DNA of 64,000 bases from Eledone cirrhosa (taxonomy: Eukaryota), in the NCBI GenBank assembly GCA_964016885.1, contig OZ024742.1, positions 96,348,001 through 96,412,000 on the forward strand. The letters are read 5' to 3'. The notes under the pieces are model-generated. The model did no database searches, was not told the origin of the DNA, and saw nothing but the letters and a program-made list of their open reading frames with translations. Position numbers and translations under genes: made by a program. The number at the start of each line of letters is the position of its first letter. Position 1 is the stretch's first letter. Positions 4,886 to 58,417 of this stretch are shown piece by piece.

Positions 4886-5371
4886 TGTGTGTCTGTGTAA
4901 AGTGAGAGAGAGCTAAGAAGAAATGCCTTTAGAAAAATTATTATTTATCATCAGATTATAAATTAGTAAAACATTCCATTTTCAATTATTTGTCAATTTT
5001 ATTCTGTTTATTTTGTTGTGTTGTGTTTATGAAATTAAGTACAGCATATATTATTTTTGGATATATGTATATATGTACAACTAATAAATAAGACATTTAA
5101 TATGCCATATTATTCCTTAATACTTGGTCGTTGTTTATAATTAGATTGTCGAATTTCCAAGGAAACTGCTGATATATATATTATTTACATTGTGGACAAG
5201 AAAAGGATACTTTTGTTGTACTTTTGGCCTAATCATTTCTTTAATATATGGCAAAAAGAGTGGTTTTATTTTGGGGTGTTTGTACTCTCCAGTGCTGCCA
5301 AAATTAATGGCAATAACATTGAGTGCATCTAATATTTGGAGCCCCGGGTTGGTATATTGATTATATCAGTA

Positions 5372-6552
5372 TTACTAGCGTAGATTTCTTAGACATTAAT
5401 TTAGACCTTCGCACACACACCCACAGACCCTTCCATAAGCTAAACGAGAAACTTAATTACATTCTGAAGGACTCATTCCACCCTCCCACAGTTTTTAGAA
5501 ACTTCGTTAAGAATATCAGTGCTAGAATCTCAAACCTCTCCTCTAATAAGGCTATCTTTCACATGGCGGCACCCTACCGGCGTTGGCTAACAGCGGCTTC
5601 TCACAACCTATCACTTACTCTCCCACTAGCAACAACACCATTAAGAAAAGTAAGCGCAACAATAGACAAACTATCTGGTTCTCTCCTCCCTTCTCACTCA
5701 ACGTTAAAACCAATGTAGGAAAAAAATGTCTAGCCCTCTTAGATAGACACTTCCCCATAGGTCATAAATACCGCTCCATCTTTAACCGACACAAAGTTAA
5801 ACTAGAATACTCCTGCGCTAAGTATATGAAGGCCCACATCACCAGTAGCCATAAGAGCAACACCCCACCAGGGTGCTCTTGCCGTAAGCCTGAAGCTTGC
5901 CCCCTTCAACAGCAATGCAACACACCAGCTGTAATCTATGAAGCTGTGGTCACTTCCAACCGACCAAACGAACCACAGTAGGTCAAATCCTATGTGGGCA
6001 TGGCGGAGGGCCGATTCAAGGAACGTTTCCTGAACCACCAGTCTACCTTCAGGTACCCGGACAGACGTTCATCCACGAAACTCGCGAGCCACGTATGGTC
6101 CCTCAAGGACTTAAGTATAGACTACTCCATTCAATGGAAAGCCATCACTAAGTCCAAGCCATACGCAAGGGGAAATCTGACGTGTGGCTTATGTATTGAC
6201 GAACGAATAACTATCCTAAAGAGATTACGCAATAGTGATTGCCTAAACATGAGAAGTGAATTTTTTACACGTTGTCCACACGTCGCCAAGCACCTATTGC
6301 ATAACTACAAGGCTCCGGACTGATTTTTTGTAATTTTATTTTCAACCTAAAAACTTTTCGGACTTTCGCAGTTATCTCCCTTACACCTTTTCGCACGCAG
6401 TCTAGTATTGCCTGTGTGAAGTGACCGGGTTTCTGCGCATGCTCGGTTGTCCTTCCTGTTCCTATAACCATGTCCATTCCGAGCTGAGGATCCGCTAAGG
6501 TGAAACAATTGTTCTCGGTATGGTGAACTAACTGTTATGTAACCACTTCTAA
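5372..6552 (+). mobile_element. 5'-truncated Penelope-like element (Naiad-type: RT thumb, Cys linker, GIY-YIG endonuclease, pLTR)
   Basis: Motifs VDFLDINL, WFSPPFS, CSCRKPEACPLQQQC, VIYEA..SYVGMA..FKERF..H, CGLC and LNMRSE..CPH. Frameshifted with a stop; ends at (TA)n. Confidence 0.88.
6474..6523 (+). ncRNA. Minimal type I hammerhead ribozyme in the PLE pLTR
   Basis: ccat-t-ccgag CTGAGGA tccgctaaggt GAAA C aatt GT T ctcgg-t-atgg. Stem I pairs 9/10 bp; stem III is the palindrome ACAATTGT. Confidence 0.8.
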
Positions 6553-8925: not shown

Positions 8926-11192
8926 CTAGCTGAAGTATGTGGCTTCGCCCAGGAGAACAGTTAAGAGAAGACGGATAAAAGAGAAAACAACTGTATTGGA
9001 TGTGTTATTTGGTTTACAGTATGAGGTGAGACCGTAATGTGTGTGAGAGAGAGAGATATAAAAAAAAGTCCTAAAACTTCCTTATTAGTCTGGAGGAGTA
9101 AACTGCTGATTAAATGGTAGCATTGGCCTTGGATTTTTAAATGTTGTGAAATAACCAGAGTCATTATGATCCTTTTCAGCCCTAAAGGATGTCATCTGAA
9201 ACGCAGCAATATACCACATGACATTGCTTCTGAAGGGTTTAGCTTTGTTAGTATGGTCTATAAGTAGTATATGGATAAAAGCTTGAGGGTTCTCTATCAG
9301 TGGAAGTCTGATCTTTCCTCCTAAGCAATACATGCCAAATGTAATATCCATGCTACCAATTACGACTTTAGGATCATTTCTATAATTCTTTGATGAATCA
9401 TATGAAAACGCAGCTCTTAGCCAGTTTATTTTGCCTTGAAGAGACGTTTGTGCTCGTCAAGTTTGCATCGCAACTGTCTTTCCCTCTTGGTGATTTTCAT
9501 ATTGAACCTCTTGTGATAGTCCTTCTTCTTGCCTTAATCTTTCTGTTTCCTGTCTCAGGTTTTGTACACTTTCAGAAAGTTGAGATCGTCATTCTTGCTG
9601 TCTTAACCTTTTTGTTTCCCGTCTCATATTCTGAATTAGGTCAATAATAACATGACACTATCGTCAAAAAACATTAATTTCAAATATTATCAATTTTTTC
9701 TGTGTTCTGTAAAATCAAAGACTGGTGTAAAACGACTTTATAAAAAAAATAAAAGTAGTATTTTATTTATCACACTAGCACAGCTGATACATAAATGTAA
9801 GTATGCACACATATACACGCATATATATATATATATATATCCGGAGAAAATGTAGAAAAGATGAATATAAAATGAAAGTGCTTTTATAAAGGAATTTATT
9901 AGGTATTGACATATTTTTCTGTAACAGACGGAATACCTATGTATCGCTGCTTGCGTAATCATATAATGTTAGCAAGTATTCAATAGAAAATGTATAATCA
10001 GTTGTGACAACTGATTATACATTTTCTATCGAATACTTGCTAACATTATATGATTACGCAAGCAGCGATACATAGGTATTCCGTCTGTTACAGAAAAATA
10101 TGTCAATACCTAATAAATTCCTTTATAAAAGCACTTTCATTTTATATTCATCTTTTTATATATATATATATATATATACACATATATATATATACATATA
10201 CATAGGTAGGTATGGGTCATATCAAACTTTAATAATACTGTTCGCTTCGTTTGTAAATAAACGGCCCGATTTGAAGCTGTGACATGCTGGTGACCAATCG
10301 TTATCTGTTTGTTCAACACTTGCTTTGAGGACAATCAACATGTTTCTGGGTCATTACCTTTCATCAGGAATGTATACCACTGCCAGTATGTTGAATGGTT
10401 GAAAATATATAGTATTTTTTTAAGTACACATCAGCTGAGTAGACTCAATTGCATACCGAGCGAGTTACGGCTGGCCTTGCCGAGTATTAAAAATGAAATT
10501 AGAATTCTTTTTCTTGCCCTAGCACAGCTGATACATAAATGTAAGTATGCACATCTACCCACACACACATATATATATACATACACATATATATGTATAC
10601 TTATGTATGCTTTATAAAAGCTAACGCAATGTTTTTAAACGTTCAACTGATACTTTGATTTTAGTTTAAGCTGATTTTAGACTTTTGTGGGGTGTCACTC
10701 ACTCTCTCTCTCTCTCTCTCTAAATATCTATCACCTTAATTGTATCTCTCTCTGTATAACGGTCTAGCTCTCTCTTTGCGTCTCTCTTTAGATGTGTGTG
10801 TGTTCGTTATGTCGGTCGTCACAGAAATGTATGTATACTCACACACACATACACTCTCGGACATGTGTGGAGATGTGTGTGTGTGTGTGTGTGTGTTTAA
10901 TTATGTGTGCAACTTACTAAGGCCTAACGTACTAATGATCGTGCAAACACACACACACTCACAGACACATACACACTCATATACGAAATGTGCCATTGTT
11001 GTTGTGGTGTTATAAAATGTAATTTACTATAATTGACTATAGAAAGATTATTTTTGATAAAATGTTATATTGTTTTAATCCAAATGAAAATAAAAATTAC
11101 ATGTTGTTAATCCCGAGGTTTAATACCGTTTGAGAATGCATAATGAAACACACAGACAGAGAGGCATATAATTTTACATATATATAGATAGA
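8926..11192 (-). mobile_element. Non-autonomous Helitron with RepHel fragment
   Basis: On the minus strand it starts A|TCTATCTATATATATGTAAAA at 11192 and ends GGGCGAAGCC..CAGCTAG|T at 8926. Internal translation AAFQMTSF...YFTTFK/IQGQCYHLISSLL matches the Helitron RepHel N-terminal region. Confidence 0.72.
9841..10156. repeat. 150-bp-arm near-perfect palindrome (fold-back element) in (TA)n with decayed hammerhead
   Basis: Arms 9856-10005 and 10007-10156 around centre 10006; one mismatch seen. Confidence 0.92.
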
Positions 11193-14859: not shown

Positions 14860-16600
14860 CCGTTTATAATTATTTCGCGTCTCCATATAATATTTCTGGA
14901 TCAGATGACTATATATCATTATTGATCTGGTTCAGTTGAAAATAATTAATACATTTAAAAACAGAGCGGCTCATCGGATCTTCAAAGGAATATAAATTAA
15001 AATAAGGGGAGAATATTACATAATGTAATGTTCCATATATTGGTATTTCACTATGGTGTCCTGGTTGTATCAATTGTCAGCCATAATCAAGCAGTATTCA
15101 TCTGTCCAGGCTGCATTGTGTGAGATCTGCCTATGAGTAACAAGATGGCCACCAAAGGACATATTTACCTTACTAATTAGAGGGTGGTTTCAGGGGAAGT
15201 AACTCCTCGAGAGATTAGAAATTGTGGGTAGTTTATAGTTAAGTGCTAATTTTTAATTTTTTTAATTGAGAGACAATGTAGGGGAGGTAACTTATAATTA
15301 TCTAAGTTAGTTATAGCTATTTAACTTATTAGCTACAAGTAAAAATGGGGTTAGATGACTATGTTGGGTCAAATATTCTATTGGCGAAGGAATTAGCCCT
15401 TCGATGTTGACAGCTAATAGTTACCTCCGTTCTATCGTTAATCGGAAGAGGTCGGGATAGAGTTATGTAATATGCTTCGGTAATACAGAGATCACAAGAA
15501 TTTCTTCGTCCATTGAACAGTTGGGCCCTAGCTACGATATCCCATTTAAGTGAGTGTTCAATGTTGCTTAATTTAAGGTTTTTAATGATCCTAGCTAGAG
15601 ATGTCGAACATCTGTTGCTAGGGTCTCGGAAGGAAAAAGAGCTGGTATTCGAAGCAGTTTTAACCGTGCACCTATAGACTATGTTGGGTGTCAGGCAGTG
15701 TCCATTTAATGGGCATGCATTAGGGTAACGGCAGTAGCAGTTGCTTCTGCGGTTAGTGAGAGTAGGGTAGTTTAACCTAAGCGGTTGGTCAGTGCTAGAA
15801 GGATTAGATGGGGCAGGTGTGCTACTAGAGTAAATATTGGTGTAGTGGCGTAGTGTATTTGATAGGGGAGGTGGTACCGCGGTGTGGGAGTTATACTGTC
15901 TTAGTTTATGATGGTTACTGAATGCGATGTGGCTAGCTAGGTTAGGTGTTGTGGAGAATGAGATTTTAATGTTATTTTTATTAAAGAGTTTGTAATATCT
16001 ATGGTTGGGGGGGGGGGTTTAGATAGGATAGAGAAGAAGCGTTTAGGGATATTAGTGGCTAGATCAGATGAGAATGGGGGGTTAAACCAGGTGATATTTC
16101 TAGGTCTATTCCTTCTAGGGGTTCTAGTGGAGTTGGTAGGGGCCTTCCTAGGGTTTTTATTACCTCGGGATTTGTTATTTGTCATCCCATTTCTCATTCC
16201 TATTCTAGGGTTGATTTTTAGTTTGCTACTTGGAGTGGGGAGCAGGCCGCTGCCACCATTAAATTTCCCTGTATAAGTGCTGTTACTGCTAAAATTCCAG
16301 CGAATCTGGCTATATGCTAAAGTATTTCTAGTTCTAGTGTTAACTTTATTATGGTGAATTGCTGTGTTATGGCATTTAGGTATGTAGTAAATGGATTGTT
16401 CATAACCAGATTCAGAAAGAGCCTTATTATAATATTGTGCATGGTTTATAAATATCTCCTCATTTACTGATAGCATGGAGATCCTATACGAGATAGATTT
16501 GATTCCTGCTCTGATGACTGCCGGAGGTGGTTAGAGTGTGGGCTAATATATGTGAGTATTTCAGCTGGTTTATGGTAAGGGTAATATAGGTTATTGTTAG
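14860..16600 (-). mobile_element. Second Penelope-like (Naiad-type) remnant
   Basis: Motifs YYPYHKP..YISPHSNH, ITWFNPPFS, CYCRYPNACPLNGHC, KWDIVARA, CDLCITE and NDRTE..CQH. Multiple frameshifts; the left boundary is uncertain. Confidence 0.85.
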
Positions 16601-38042: not shown

Positions 38043-38109
38043 AGAAAGATAGACAAACGCTAATATTTTTTTTTATAATATATATTGGCATGCCATAATA
38101 TATATATAG

Positions 38110-38503
38110 AATGATATTAAATAAATGGAAACTATATTTATAAAACCATATTTATTCTATTATATATATTTCAAGGGTACCAAAAACTTTGGTACGCTTT
38201 CATGAGATAAAATACAAAGTGTGTTTTATAAATTTTGACACAGCCTTGGAAAAATTCAACTGATAAGGTATGTTCCTTGGCTATGTCAAAATTTATAAAA
38301 CACATTTAGTATTTTATCTGATGAAAGCATACCAAAGTTTTTGGTACCCTTGAAATATATATAATAGAATAAATATGGTTTTATAAATATAGTTTCCGTT
38401 TATTTAATATCATTGAATATTTACTCCAGAAAACTGTTGAGTGCTCTGAATCAGTTATAAACATTTATATTTGTTGTTACCAACAAATTAAATATCCCTT
38501 CTG

Positions 38504-38506
<3 letters not shown>
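38110..38506 (+). mobile_element. Fold-back hammerhead element (family H1) in (TA)n
   Basis: Arms 38110-38245 and 38279-38414, a 33-nt loop and a tail of about 92 nt. Homologous to 56174-56621. Confidence 0.85.
38310..38371 (+). ncRNA. Type I hammerhead ribozyme
   Basis: tattttat CTGATGA aagcataccaaagtttttggtaccctt GAAA T atat A T A atagaata. Confidence 0.8.
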
Positions 38507-38566: not shown

Positions 38567-39421
38567 CCTCCAAGCCATAACAGAGGAGTTTAAGACTGGC
38601 TGCCTATGGAACTTCTCTATGCTGATGATCTTATAGCAGAATCAGTAGAGGAGCTAGAGAAGAAATTCTGGCTATGAAACAGCAGTTGGAATCAAGAGGA
38701 CTGAGAGTGAACACAGTTAAGACAAAAGTGTTGATAAGTAGAAGAGAGGACAAAAGTCTGATTCCATCAGGGAAATGGCTATGTTCGATATGCCGAAAAG
38801 GAACTGGCATAAATTCTATAAAATGTACACAATGCAGATCTTGGGTACACAAGAGATGTAGTGGGATAGCAGGCAAACTAACAGGTAGGGAAAACTACGT
38901 ATGCAGTAGATGTACAGGGAAATTTGCTTCTTCTGTTCACAAAGAAGGGTTTCTCCCTGTGTATGAAAGGTCGATTATATGATGCCTGTGTGGGATGCGT
39001 GATGCTGCATGGTAGTGAGACATGGGTAGCAACATGGGTAGCAAACATGCTCCGTTGGATGTGGAATGACAATGTGTGTGAATGACCAAGCATAGAAGAG
39101 TTGAGAGAGAAACAGTGTATAAGAGGGATAAGTTGTGGTGTGTGGGAGAGAAGACTGAGATGGTATGGACATATGATGCACATGGAGAATGACGCTGGGT
39201 AAAGAAGTGCCAAGAAATGCCAGTAAAATGAAGATGCAATAGAGGAAGACCACAAAAAGAATGGGCGGAGGTGGTTATAGCAGACCTCAGATCACTGCAG
39301 CTCATGGAGGGGGGGGCATGACGGAGTAGCGTGACAAGTGGAGAGATGTTGTGCTGAATAGGACCCGTCCCACTCTTGTAAGCAGGGAAAAGTGGACGTA
39401 AAATAATGATGATGATGATGA
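38562..39421 (+). mobile_element. 5'-truncated RTE-type LINE with (GAT)n tail
   Basis: LLYADDL, CSIC..CTQC..WVHKRC..CSRC, MLHGSETW and RLRWYGH. Its tail GGACGTAAAATAATGATGATG matches the SINE family 2 tail. Confidence 0.82.
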
Positions 39422-39629
39422 TATATATATATATATATAATTAGAGCAGATATTTATTAATAGCACAGATACTTAAACAAACAAATTCTTTCTTCACCCT
39501 TTTCCAGGATTTTCTGAAACTGAGAAATATATCAATCTGCATCCACATATTTTTATAATTCTCAGTTTCAGAAGATCCCCTAAGAAGGTGAAAGTTGGAC
39601 TTCTTTGCTTAAACTTTAACATATAGACA

Positions 39630-39923
39630 ATGTGACCCCCCCCCACCCCCACCGCAAGGTGGTCGTGGAGGTGCCACGGCAAAAAAGCACCCAGCCCACA
39701 CTGTAAAGTGGACGTGTAGGCGCCACGAAAAAGCACCCAGCACTCACTGTAAATGAGGTTGGTGTTAGGAAGGGCATCCGGCTGTAGAAATCAAGCCAAA
39801 TCAGTTCCTGTATGAGCAAGGCATGGTCAGCCGACCAGACACTGCCCACAACAGGACAACACGTCAAACCCATGCTAGCGTGGAAGAACGGACGTAAAAC
39901 GGTGATGATGATGATGATGATGA
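39630..39923 (+). mobile_element. SINE family 2, 3' part
   Basis: Nearly identical to 11960-12231. Confidence 0.85.
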
Positions 39924-39944
39924 TATATATATATATATATATAA

Positions 39945-39992
<48 letters not shown>

Positions 39993-39996
<4 letters not shown>

Positions 39997-40703
39997 AAGT
40001 AAAATAAAAAGTCAAATGTTTAAAATTTAGCTTCGTTTATTACTGCTATATATATTTCGGTGACAGCCATCTTTGGCTGTTGACCCGTTCAGGCAGTCCG
40101 AATTAGTGTGGTATAGACAAGTACATATGTTGTTAAGGTGTATAATTTTGTCAATACTCTGATATGCCCAGTTCTTGGTTGGGTTGTTATTTCACTGAGG
40201 AACTGGAATCATATGAATTCAAACAAACAAATTTCAGTGTCAAAGGGCCTCTTCTCCGCTCATTGGTCAGTTGTTAGAACATTCCTCATTCAAAATTTTC
40301 TATAGACTTTTGAATGAGGAATGTTCTAACAACTGACCAATGAGAGGAGAAGAGACCCTTTGACAACGAAATTTGTTTGTTTGAATTCATATGATTCCAG
40401 TTCCTCAGTGAAATAACAACCCAACCAGGAACTGGGCATATCAGAGTATTGACAAAATTATACACCTCAACAACATATGTACTTGTCTATACCACACTAA
40501 TTCGGACTGCCTGAAGAGGTCACAGCCAAAGATGGCTGACACCGAAATATATATAGCAGTAATAAACGAAGCTAAATTTTAAACATTTGACTTTTTATTT
40601 TACTTTATTATACATTACTCCGGAGTAACCAAACCAACCTGCGGACTTCGTCGAGTGCTCCAGCCTGCATACTGAGGTGTTGGTATACAACCAACATTTA
40701 CTC
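39993..40703 (+). mobile_element. Fold-back hammerhead element (family H2) in (TA)n
   Basis: Arms 39993-40295 and 40308-40609, a 12-nt loop and a tail of about 94 nt. Confidence 0.88.
40506..40560 (+). ncRNA. Type I hammerhead ribozyme
   Basis: actgc CTGAAGA ggtcacagccaaagatggctgacacc GAAA T atat A T A gcagt. Stem I is perfect and G10.1-C11.1 is canonical. Confidence 0.88.
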
Positions 40704-41130
40704 AAAAAAAAATATATATATATATATATACACCACTTAAGTTAGTTTGATTACAAATGGGTAGAACTGGTGGTTCTGGTTGGTAAACCATGATGCAACA
40801 AATTAATTAAACCACTCAACATTATGCAAGTCATCCATTGTAGATGTGGTATCCAGTGGTTGGTGCAGCTGCCAGGAATGTGTGTGTAAGGGGGGGGGGG
40901 GCATATGAAGAAATCAAGTTGAGAATAACTGTTAAGGAGTGCTAGTGGAAGGGGGAGGGGACGACAGGTCACATTGTATCCTGCAGGTCGGGTCTTCTTC
41001 AGCACTGGGTAGCACCAGTCCTCGTGGTCTTTAGTCATTTCTGTTGTAAGGTTTAGATTTCTAAGGTCAGTCCTTATCATATATATATATGTGTATATAT
41101 ATATATATACGTATATAGTATATATATATA

Positions 41131-42465
41131 TAGTAGCTGGCATTGCCTGGGTTAAAGAAAACTTTTTCTAGGGTATATTTGAAACTTCTAATATAGTTGT
41201 TTCTTGTATGTAACATATCTTGTAGCTGCAATATGATTCCTTACTTTGTTTCTTTATTCTTTGAATATCTTTTCTGTACTTGCATTTTTATATCACTGAT
41301 GAAATGCTGTAGTAAATATTTTGGTTCTTCTCCTGAAAGTGGCTGAAGCAATCCAATTCTATCGTAAATTTCCCTTTGGATCTTGAAAGTGGGCATAAAG
41401 CCATCTTCTTGGATGGCATCTGCACCAAATAATGTCAAGAATCAAGCATATTACTACTTGATATTTTGAATAAATTATCTTGTATGAGTAGTTATCCCAA
41501 TCAGCAGTCCCATCAAGGGTTCTGGTGGTTTAGGAAATAGTATAAACTTAATCTTTCCATTTAAACAGCATAATTCAGGAGACTCATCAATCTTTGTTTT
41601 AGCACCACAATTTGGACCAATTTTGTTCATTGAGGAAATATCAATTAAAAGTTCTGAGGCATAATTTTGATGCGGATTGTAACTAAAAGCAGCAAAGTTT
41701 CACTCGGCAACTTTGAAAAATTGTAAATCTTCTGCTCTTACTTTTAGTTCACATAGCATTTGGGTTGTTTGAGATTCAGTTTCTTCATGCTGTCTTGGTG
41801 TTTTTTTATATATCTGAATCCTCTTAGCAAATAGTTGTTTTCATTACCATATCTTCAGCAAGTCTTTTTGATCTTTGTTCTTCTGATTCATCTTGTTTTT
41901 TCTGTGCTCTTCTTATTCTTTGTTGTTGAAGCTTTGATGATCTTTGTGCATCTGATTCATCCTCTCTGTTTTGTACTGAAGTTTTTAACATCTAATTCCT
42001 CTTGATGAGTAGTTGCTTTCCTTGTCCTATCATCAGCAAGGCCTTTTGACCTTTGTTCTTCTGATTCATTTCGCCTATATTTTGCTGTTGTTTTTCTTTG
42101 TTTTTGGAGTCTTTCTTGTTGCTGCTCTTCACTTTCATTCTCCCTTTGTAGCTGCTATGCCATAGCCTTATGAGACACTTTCTTCCAAATGAAGGGCTAT
42201 CCTTCAGTGGAGTGGCTATTTATATTAAACACAAAAGAGAACTTAACTGAAATGACCAGCCTAAATGCAAACATATCTCTATTTTTTTACTATAACACAC
42301 TTTATTGGTGTACATGGCTTCTGGTGAACAGCCTACTAGCTGTGAAATATATAGAGGCAAACCTTTATGTTTTTCTTTGTGCTGAGAGAATATCTATCAC
42401 AATTGTTTACATTTCACAGCAAAGCTTATAAAGTATAGTTATACCAACATTACATTGATCTCATA
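41131..42465 (-). mobile_element. Helitron remnant (RepHel N-terminal fragment)
   Basis: LCCLNGK, TLFGA..GFMPTFKIQ.EIY.RIG and repeated charged RLAD..R segments. Degenerate 3' hairpin CCAGGCAATGCCAG. The stretch 42215-42465 recurs at 63205-63445. Confidence 0.75.
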
Positions 42466-55843: not shown

Positions 55844-56215
55844 ACCTTAGGGAAAAGGACTGTTTTCCAGATGTGTTTGTAGAAAGTGAGAACATTTCTA
55901 TAGGCAGAGGGAGGAATTAACACGTAATACATCGGTCAAGAAAGAGGACTGATTCCCTTGTAGCAAGTGAAAAATATCTCGAAGGGTGGAGTAAGAAATT
56001 AATACAGAGGTCACAGGTGGGTAGTAAGGTAGACAGAAAGCGATTATCATGTTTGCTAGAGAAAGCAGTTACTACATTTTCAGGTTAACTCAACCATAAG
56101 AGAGTTTGAGACAATATAATAATGAGATACACACATATACATATATACACATATACATGCATATATATATATATACGATATTAACAAATGGAAACTATAT
56201 TTATAAAACCATATT

Positions 56216-56280
56216 TATTTCATTATACATATTTCAAGGACACCAAGTTAAATTATGGTGTGCTTTCATCAGATAAAATA
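56216..56280 (-). ncRNA. Type I hammerhead ribozyme (left arm, minus strand)
   Basis: Reverse complement of 56426-56490; TCATCAG and TTTC are intact on the plus strand. Confidence 0.8.
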
Positions 56281-56425
56281 TAATATAGAGCAGTTTTATA
56301 AATAAATATTGACATACCCTTAAATAATGCAACCATTACTGTTGGAAGCTCCCGGAGCTTCCAACAGTAATGGTTGCATTCTTTAAGGGTATGTCAATAT
56401 TTATTTATAAAACTGCTCTATATTA

Positions 56426-56490
56426 TATTTTATCTGATGAAAGCACACCATAATTTAACTTGGTGTCCTTGAAATATGTATAATGAAATA
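56426..56490 (+). ncRNA. Type I hammerhead ribozyme (right arm)
   Basis: tattttat CTGATGA aagcacacca-taatttaact-tggtgtcctt GAAA T atgt A T A atgaaata. Confidence 0.82.
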
Positions 56491-58417
56491 AATATGGTTT
56501 TATAAATATAGTTTCCATTTGTTAATATTGTATTTTTTACTCCAATTATTTGTTGAGTGCTTTATATCAGTTATAAAAAGATTTGCTTGTTGTATCCCAA
56601 CAATTTAAATTGAACTTTCCCATATATATATATATATATATATATATTTTTTGGTTTTTTTTCATATGTATGCGAGTGTGTGTGGTCTCAACCTTGACCA
56701 ATGCTGCTCGATGATCGGAAGAGACAAAATAACCAAGATCACTAAATTGACTCGATAATCAGAGCTATATATCAAATTATAAAATAAGAGGAAATAATAG
56801 ACACAGATATATACCTATTTTCTCATCAAAATCCCGACTGTACAGTTTCGCTGATCCGTATGCGACAATTGTATTCAACTCAGAGCTGATCAGTGGCCAT
56901 TTAATTCTGTAGGTCCTTACATTGATTTAATAGCATCATCTGTTAAGTGGGGTAAACCTATGTGTATATTAAAGTTTACTTAAAAATAAATTCATGGAGC
57001 ATTGTATCATCAACATACCTAAATGTATTTCACTGTGAATTACTGCTATAACATATAACTAAACCTTTCAGTGTGTTAGAAACGTAATATCAGTTGAGAA
57101 TTAATTATAAATATTTTAGATAGAAAGCTAACCAATGACCAGAAGTTCTTAGAATGATTTACTAGCATGATCTGGTGATTGAATGCTTTGAATAAAACTG
57201 AGCAACTCTTTGTCCGTTCATGCAAGGTCCTTATAGTGATTTAATAGCATTGTCTGTTGAATGAATGTTTTGGGTAAAACTATGGTGTATAGTGATATGT
57301 TTATACATATCAATACACACATGGTTTGCTTAGAAATTCATGGAGCCTTTTATATATATATCACAGATTTGAAACATAATACTTGCTAAGAAACTCATGG
57401 AGCATATTATAAATATATATATTATCGGACTTATAACAAAATATTTGACAAAAATTTAAAAAAACATTTCACTGAGAATTACTGCTTTAGCATATAACTA
57501 AATATTTCAATGAGTTAGAAAACTAATCTCTGTTGAAAAATTGGTTTTAAAATGTTAGATTTACTTGCCAAAGAATGGACATATTAGAAATGAAGAAAGA
57601 AAACTGTCGAGTTATAAAAATAAAGCAATGATTGATCCTGTTTTTCTATTATTATTCACCAAAATCACTGTTCTAAGACATTGTGTGAATTTATGCAAAA
57701 TACACACAAAAATGCACACAGATTTATGTATAAACAATGATATGTATATATATATGTGTGTGTGTGTGCATATATATATATATATATATAACATGTGTGT
57801 GAGTGTGTATACATACATATGTGTGTCTGTGTGTGAACGCAAGCATATATGAAAGTTCATGTATTATATGTATGTGTTATTGTAAACATTTACATGTATA
57901 TACTCCTTCATGTACATAGAAACATATATGAGAGAGAAATAGAGTTGATTTGTGAGTAAATACATAGGCATCGGCTCCTACACACAGATAGACACCTGTC
58001 TAAAGCTCAATATATATATATATATATATGGAGAAAGAGAGAGAAAGAGAGAGAGAGATAGAGAGGGGGAGGGGGAGAGAGAAACCTAGTATATATATAT
58101 ATAAAGATTTACAAACATAGACATATATGTATTTGTAAACACAACCATATACGAAATTTCACACATATATTTTTGTGATAGGTTCCAGCATGAACACAAA
58201 CAATCACCTGTATACGTGTATGTATAAACATATACATACATTCAAAAAAATAAACACATAAACACATATAGGCGCACACATGTGCAAACATAAACATTCA
58301 CCTCTTATTTTCAATAGATCTATTACATCTTACCTGGAAATAAAACCAAAATAATGTATATATATATATATATATGTTAAAAAGTACAAGCTTAGCATGT
58401 ATATATTTAAATATATG

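Follow-up and report, generated by a model that had tools for sequence, protein, structure and literature searches.

The fold-back at 39990-40707 carries a hammerhead motif in each arm, one with an intact core and one with an altered core, and it raises the question of how such a structure arose and whether the difference between its arms has a meaning of its own. It lies in AT-rich DNA of animal type, rich in microsatellites and decayed LINE-like ORFs (the window, i.e., the whole 64,000-nt stretch analysed here). Our answer is that the fold-back is a real, ordinary truncated insert of Penelope-like element (PLE) type. It illustrates an insertion pattern already in print, and the analysis sets right an over-reading of the locus as a case of arm-specific ribozyme loss.

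Fold-back geometry and hammerhead motifs

The inverted arms occupy 39990-40295 (306 nt, minus strand) and 40308-40612 (305 nt, plus strand). Comparison of the two identifies the left arm as an inverted, tail-less copy of an element end and the right arm as a sense copy of the element's 3' region, with stop codons in all three frames. A 12-nt loop separates them (40296-40307, plus strand), as delimited by public-run contigs and analysis of the turn. The arms differ at 11 places (10 substitutions and one insertion), and two clusters of these differences also allow a reading as paired indels. Beyond the right arm follows a one-sided tail of ~95 nt (40613-40707, plus strand), defined by contigs and reads in four public runs; a perfect 14-nt palindrome opens it (40615-40628), which is absent from the tails of the H1 family, represented in the window by fold-backs at 38101-38505 and 56173-56622. 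The sequence on both flanks is (TA)n: a microsatellite at 39924-39989, presumably the left part of the target, and (TA)9 at 40713-40730 after an A-run, presumably its right part. Within (TA)n the outer limit of the left arm is fuzzy by 2-3 nt and a target-site duplication is unreadable. The preliminary description of this locus reported a fold-back with 303-bp arms, which is real, the figure reflecting the same arm cut at 39993. Its likeness in geometry to H1 also stands: the predicted cut lies ~54-57 nt from the arm end (~51-54 nt in the H1 copies), AATAAA is present, the tail measures ~95 nt (~90 nt in the H1 copies) and the flanks are (TA)n.

Descriptor matching, reads and folding predict a minimal type I hammerhead at 40506-40560 (plus strand). 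Its 5-bp stem I (40506-40510/40556-40560) is followed inwards by the core word CTGAAGA (40511-40517), stem II (40518-40543) and GAAA (40544-40547), then by the palindromic TATATA of stem III and TA, with the predicted cut after 40555. The sequence agrees with the type I core throughout (C3 U4 G5 A6 N7 G8 A9, G12 A13 A14, A15.1-U16.1, H17, three helices), and AATAAA stands directly 3' of stem I (40561-40566, plus strand), as in the H1 copies. The descriptor matched 2 of 5000 dinucleotide shuffles of the right arm; in the window it found 4 matches, against a mean of 0.07 and a maximum of 1 in 60 block shuffles. Coordinates and descriptor statistics thus confirm the AATAAA-adjoining hammerhead. 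The word "canonical" that had been applied to it is right for the core, which is intact, and wrong if taken to mean a pristine copy, since stem II has a private A at 40539. The left-arm copy (40042-40097, minus strand) is predicted from core comparison to be inactive: it departs from the type I core at G8 (40087) and A9 (40086) and has an extra stem II base at 40081. Its core word CTGAACG had been described as altered at positions 7-9; G8 and A9 are indeed changed and position 7 (A) is not. The G8 change stays below 5% in all four public runs.

Rfam hammerhead models gave no match at E<=1 when run on all of the window, nor at E<=10 in 40440-40730. This lowers only the case for an Rfam-family label, because PLE variants needed relaxed descriptors of their own in the accessible text of PMC4209133. 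The miRNA-family Rfam matches at 40245-40359 fall below gathering scores and were discarded as reflecting the long hairpin only. The predicted stem III self-duplex amounts to -5.2 kcal/mol, and in the predicted fold of a read-through transcript 52 of the 55 right-hammerhead bases pair with the opposite arm. Because the two hammerheads lie on opposite strands, a single RNA can have only one of them in sense.

Several smaller observations concern the right arm. The closing base of stem II, 40543, is T in ~55% of family reads, which gives a G-U pair. Core positions are absent among the variant rows listed, a hint at selection on the core in source lineages. At 40335-40344 there is a word that we take to be CCAAT-box-like. 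Loop II contains an ATG 24 nt upstream of the predicted cut, as in the PAc element of Anolis; it was considered as an ORF start and rejected, as the frame stops after 16 codons. The stem III region at 40548-40555 contains TATATATA, and PMC3846280 (accessible text) suggests that such a word may serve a rotifer pLTR as its TATA box.

The family in public runs and the parent element

A run search with the stretch listed 17 runs, none of them on record as RNA, which says nothing about expression; 13 contain some of its words and 2 at least half. We compared 40296-40712 with four runs at 80% likeness, leaving out runs X7-X13 with their small shares. Matching contigs numbered 3936 in X1, 52 in X4 and 245 in X5, and X15 yielded 9054 raw reads. 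Such counts in four of four runs, under at least two organism labels, indicate an abundant family; the run that shares most with the stretch may come from the source of the window itself. All four runs depart from the stretch at ~40707 into TC/(TA)n, with 29, 1 and 2 contigs and 696 reads in support, and this common exit makes the tail end a fixed family boundary. At the other side, contigs start at 40297 and run on upstream in non-inverted orientation (agreement 0.62-0.74, several such contigs in two of the runs). The stretch 40297-40307 is therefore ordinary sense family sequence, and the centre is the 5' truncation point of the 39990-40707 copy. The turn shows ~2 nt of microhomology and, within a homopolymer run, a single extra base. 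Neither a joint at the 40296-40307 centre nor a tail-to-head joint is listed in the four runs for the 417 nt compared, a result to be read with the caution that contigs drop rare forms, so that unlisted joints could exist.

Read ends in X15 pile up at 40297, 40373, 40384, 40499, 40502 and 40578, all at or next to AATT (the AATT near 40297 is shifted by one base in the 39990-40707 copy). As these piles coincide with AATT sites, we rejected them as element boundaries and treat them as library artefacts, and the strand-change joints at 40386-40389 in the same run are likewise put down to the library. Two further strand-change joints in X15 lie off AATT, at 40413/40661 (60 reads, 2 starts) and 40396/40675 (9 reads, 4 starts); these are possibly inverted junctions of other copies.

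Since no RT/GIY-YIG ORF is linked to the fold-back, we infer its PLE membership; a missing ORF is what one expects of a truncated copy. A full parent of this type would have an ORF for a telomerase-like RT and a GIY-YIG endonuclease, framed by partial tandem direct pLTRs. Searches for relatives of the parent were negative within their scope. The exact 21-nt stem II pattern had no match in metagenome contigs and none in viral contigs, and tblastn of 150 PLE-like (Hydra-like) proteins against 39401-41200 returned matches at chance level only. None of these 150 proteins ends like the short frame found upstream in reads. The window's GIY-YIG-like fragment, used in a word-index search of proteins, gave 203 candidates of which none passed, and Pfam found nothing near cut-off in five window fragments. 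A composite pattern of stem III, AATAAA and the tail motif hit 12 loci, which were dismissed as chance, none having a hammerhead core within the 70 nt upstream.

The window does contain two other PLE remnants, recognised by their ORFs and motifs. The one at 5323-6323 (plus strand, region to 6553) is a C-terminal ORF remnant; 160 nt after its stop there is a hammerhead-like motif (6479-6518) with a palindromic stem III and one mismatch in stem II, then ~35 nt, then (TA)n. This shows that PLE, hammerhead and (TA)n are associated in this genome, in a family different from that of the fold-back, as judged by the 0/150 C-terminal matches and the chance-level tblastn result. The second remnant (15359-16530, minus strand) is frameshifted, and scans found no hammerhead just downstream of it. 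Both have the Hydra-type motifs CxCX5C, CxxC and CxH that the accessible text of PMC8557442 gives for Hydra-clade PLEs. The second remnant has 1622 relatives at E<=0.001; among 7 long sequences of the 150 used here, Pfam gave sub-threshold GIY-YIG in 2 and RVT_1 in 1, and a DKT motif is present in one of the two relatives inspected.

Other repeats in the window were noted in passing. A fold-back at 9795-10203 has a 1-nt loop, (TA)n flanks and no hammerhead core, one arm being ~12 nt longer beside (TA)n; it is possibly a hammerhead-less PLE end. At ~130 nt from it lies a degenerate hammerhead-like motif (10367-10330, minus strand) with a palindromic stem III. The region 41804-42145 consists of two copies of a ~178-nt repeat at 70% identity, each with a minus-strand CTGANGA...GAAA word that fails the hammerhead descriptor.

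Arm differences and formation of the insert

Comparison with X15 reads assigns the differences between the arms to one arm or the other. The tail-side arm has private letters at 40355, 40366, 40367, 40539 and 40610, where 96, 95, 93, 99 and 95% of reads differ from it, respectively, and where the left arm agrees with the majority; 40539 is the stem II position, and there 99% of reads have T against A in the tail-side arm. At the other six differences it is the left arm that is private, and a split of 5 to 6 gives a binomial p of 1. Three of the left-arm changes are secure: 40345 (absent from the A>C places, of which the listing gives all four), G8 (each run has a single G>C place, at 40644) and the insertion, which has no row. 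The calls at 40428, 40468 and A9 rest on absence among the variant rows listed (40 of 92).

This even split bears on the contrast that the preliminary description drew between a canonical tail-side core and a broken opposite one, a contrast that we do not uphold. The probability that at least one of 10 differing sites in 303 nt falls on one of 12 core positions is 0.34, and the same figure for the H1 copy at 38101 is 0.61. The H1 fold-back at 56173-56622 (arms to 56533), with two arm differences and a 1-nt loop, has both cores intact. Together with the 5-to-6 split, this leaves selective inactivation of the far arm unsupported. One might still propose that the core of the tail-less arm is systematically altered across families, by error-prone second-strand synthesis or by counter-selection of an antisense ribozyme. 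In its favour, G5 is changed in the tail-less arm of the 38101-38505 copy, so that tail-less cores are changed in 2 of 3 window fold-backs and tail-arm cores in 0 of 3, and three left-arm changes at the present locus lie within 7 nt (p ~0.02 under uniform decay). Tallying core changes by arm, as had been suggested, nevertheless fails to carry the claim: given two core differences, both fall on one named arm with a chance of 1 in 4, and the tally is biased because copies get noticed through an intact core, which makes 2/3 versus 0/3 unremarkable. Both arms of the 38101 copy, moreover, bear private differences relative to the 56173 copy. The 7-nt cluster suggests either a single complex event or a misassembly near the hairpin; a quasi-palindrome correction across stem II, tried by eye, failed to reproduce it. 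Taken together these points make systematic core loss very unlikely. The openly accessible main texts searched yielded nothing on arm-specific loss of a hammerhead core.

We consider it highly probable that the insert arose when a member of an abundant, endonuclease-bearing Penelope-like family entered a (TA)n microsatellite as a 5'-truncated, dead-on-arrival copy, a formulation that includes a twin-priming variant. The element protein would nick the (TA)n target and reverse transcription would set in at the 3' tail end and halt after ~410 nt of cDNA, whose 3' end would fold back via the ~2 nt of microhomology, leaving the 12-nt loop; self-extension would then generate the head-to-head copy, which ends at the tail start, a putative second start or nick site. 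The hammerhead would belong to the terminal repeat of the parent and would there function as a dimer, with tandem copies supplying the two motifs. In the fold-back it would have no partner on the same RNA and be buried in a long hairpin, so that neither copy would be under selection. The arm differences are thus most likely neutral decay, possibly with some assembly error. The earlier proposal of a PLE end with a dimer-type hammerhead, integrated along an H1-like route, holds by this reasoning, the route itself being already published (PMC8557442, PMC3846280 and PMC4209133, in their accessible parts). Two sets of observations concern the source of the arms. Of 24 sites that vary in the family, with another letter in 5-93%, the arms agree at 22 (tail rows and three rows next to a cut site were excluded), where two random unlinked copies would be expected to show ~10 mismatches. 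This fits one template, although the agreement is weaker than it looks, because the sites are linked in subfamilies and later arm-to-arm conversion would give the same result. The three hammerhead fold-backs in the window share a common geometry with short centres, and the centres of all four window fold-backs measure 1, 1 and 12 nt, with ~20-40 nt in the most decayed. We favour a route in which the truncated cDNA folded back on itself, similar to the antisense-template self-priming set out in the accessible text of PMC3846280.

The twin-priming variant shares the probability of this best explanation and appears to us possible but the less likely route. Here two cDNAs, started at the tail end and at the tail start on opposite target strands, with a single RNA or a protein dimer as source, would be joined by microhomology. 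It directly explains one tailed and one tail-less arm, and it agrees with the activity of the purified PLE protein from the anole, which acts on both strands by cutting and extending them and has two start sites bracketing the tail (PMC11167929, accessible text). On the other side, in three of the four window fold-backs only ~1-12 nt separate the ends of the two arms, and independent truncations would rarely coincide so closely. Readings outside the truncated-insertion explanation find less room. A non-autonomous hammerhead retroposon, like a retrozyme or a SINE, with no ORF of its own and moved by a PLE protein, would agree with the lack of a linked ORF and with the stops in all frames of the arm, and non-LTR retrozymes are described as PLE derivatives (10.64898/2026.07.22.740005, accessible text). 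Yet no tail-to-start joint is listed, the tail enters (TA)n and contigs reach further 5', three facts that speak against a tandem monomer of <=~410 nt, and we regard this reading as unlikely. Least probable of all is a palindrome produced by the assembly or by fold-back of long reads, or one that belongs to a MITE-like DNA element and represents its long terminal inverted repeats. Among the reads listed, none crosses the centre of the 39990-40612 copy (four runs, one arm queried), and the two clusters of differences resemble paired indel errors; the arm mismatches, once taken as an argument for real, aged DNA, are by themselves compatible with assembly error. What speaks against an artefact is that at three separate loci the inverted copy ends ~51-57 nt past the predicted cut, with the flanks excluded. 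As for a MITE or Foldback element, with its symmetric terminal inverted repeats, fixed ends and shared centre, the family centre is not fixed, other copies passing it in sense, and the tail is one-sided. The truncated PLE insertion thus remains our preferred reading. The wider interest of a head-to-head PLE copy with a one-sided tail lies in the choice between self-priming and two primed strands, for which a family of thousands of copies allows a tally of loops, microhomology and arm haplotypes.

The tail, possible kinship with H1 and comparison with known systems

Three motifs occur in the same order in the 40613-40707 tail and in both H1 tails: TACTCC, GTYGAGTGCT and a terminal TGTTG/CAACA hairpin. 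Here GTYGAGTGCT lies at 40650-40659 (plus strand); it has 13 one-mismatch matches in the window, and its exact matches are confined to the three tails. The hairpin, recognised by sequence and folding, lies at 40678-40696 (plus strand), has an AC-rich 3' side and ends ~11 nt before the tail end, as in both H1 tails, where the loops differ. Among shuffled tails 17 of 5000 reached the summed alignment score and 49 of 5000 shared a 10-mer, which with post hoc tests and boundaries set by eye means p of about 0.003-0.01. The rest of the element compares poorly: for the arm body 5' of the hammerhead 188 and 68 of 2000 shuffles align with H1 as well as the real sequence, and the same holds for 347 and 1206 of 2000 shuffles of the part between the cut and the end of the arm. 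The earlier statement that the sequence is unrelated to H1 is thus roughly right for the arm body and wrong for the tail. The shared tail motifs point to distant kinship, and the simplest reading of these sequences is that the family and H1 may descend from a distant common ancestor. That one mechanism acts on independent PLE families accordingly keeps its first half, the mechanism, which we infer, while the independence has become doubtful.

The long tail with its shared motifs is a candidate protein-binding and start element. It is conceivable, though we hold the idea only tentatively, that the ~95 nt form a conserved structured cis-element of diverged PLE families of this genome, a binding site for the PLE protein between two RT start sites, made up of an ACTC/GAGT pairing, GTYGAGTGCT and the terminal AC-rich hairpin. 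The pairings show no covariation in the three sequences and folding z-scores are -1.5, -2.9 and -0.6, so the structure is only suggested; the tail may be a conserved reverse-transcriptase start element. If true, the two-start-site model, derived from one vertebrate Poseidon element whose tail is short and coding, would come to cover a tail that is long and non-coding, and its start sites could be mapped in vivo from thousands of genomic copies. We found no account of a ~95-nt tail with GTYGAGTGCT in the openly accessible main texts searched; consensus sequences of the family and longer tails may already stand in supplements or Repbase entries.

The following comparisons refer to the accessible parts of the papers cited. 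Non-LTR retrozymes (10.64898/2026.07.22.740005) resemble the fold-back in being PLE-related and non-coding with a type I hammerhead. They consist of tandem direct repeats, each with a hammerhead, whereas here the pair is inverted and the four runs list no tandem joint. Hydra-clade PLEs (PMC8557442), whose proteins are marked by DKT and RWK motifs and a CxCX5C linker and lack CCHH, share canonical hammerheads and (TA)n targets, but no sequence link was found between the two Hydra-type remnants of the window and the fold-back family. In the Poseidon element PAc of Anolis (PMC11167929) the hammerhead likewise lies 5' of the tail, an AC-rich stem-loop occurs near the 3' end and the target is AT-rich; its ORF starts at stem II and its tail is coding, whereas the loop II ATG here opens a frame of 16 codons and the tail is longer. 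In that purified system the tail lies between two RT start sites, cleavage is dispensable for insertion, and G8C abolishes cleavage of the anole element.

The hammerheads of metazoan PLEs (PMC4209133) come in minimal form, paired on opposite strands 100-700 bp apart; the two cores here are ~420 bp apart on opposite strands. Common features are a 5-bp helix I, a long helix II, G10.1-C11.1 and a palindromic helix III, and the present motif differs in that position 9 adjoins helix II directly in the predicted fold, that helix II has an internal mismatch and that Rfam gives no match. PLE hammerheads with such a short palindromic stem III are reported to need a second copy and even then to cleave weakly (PMC4209133; PMC6765202). 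The closest parallel is the inverted pLTR and tail of PLEs. PMC8557442 describes insertions biased towards (TA)n, with a 30-40 bp tail on one side and a 5'-truncated copy that adjoins the 5' end in inverted orientation; head-to-head palindromic junctions, read as self-priming, are described in PMC3846280. The fold-back differs from these in its tail of ~95 nt, about three times as long, and in the absence of an ORF in the copy. It shares with endonuclease-bearing PLEs the inverted, head-to-head 5'-truncated copy with a palindromic junction, the one-sided tail, the type I hammerhead and membership of a multi-copy family dispersed in AT-rich or (TA)n targets.
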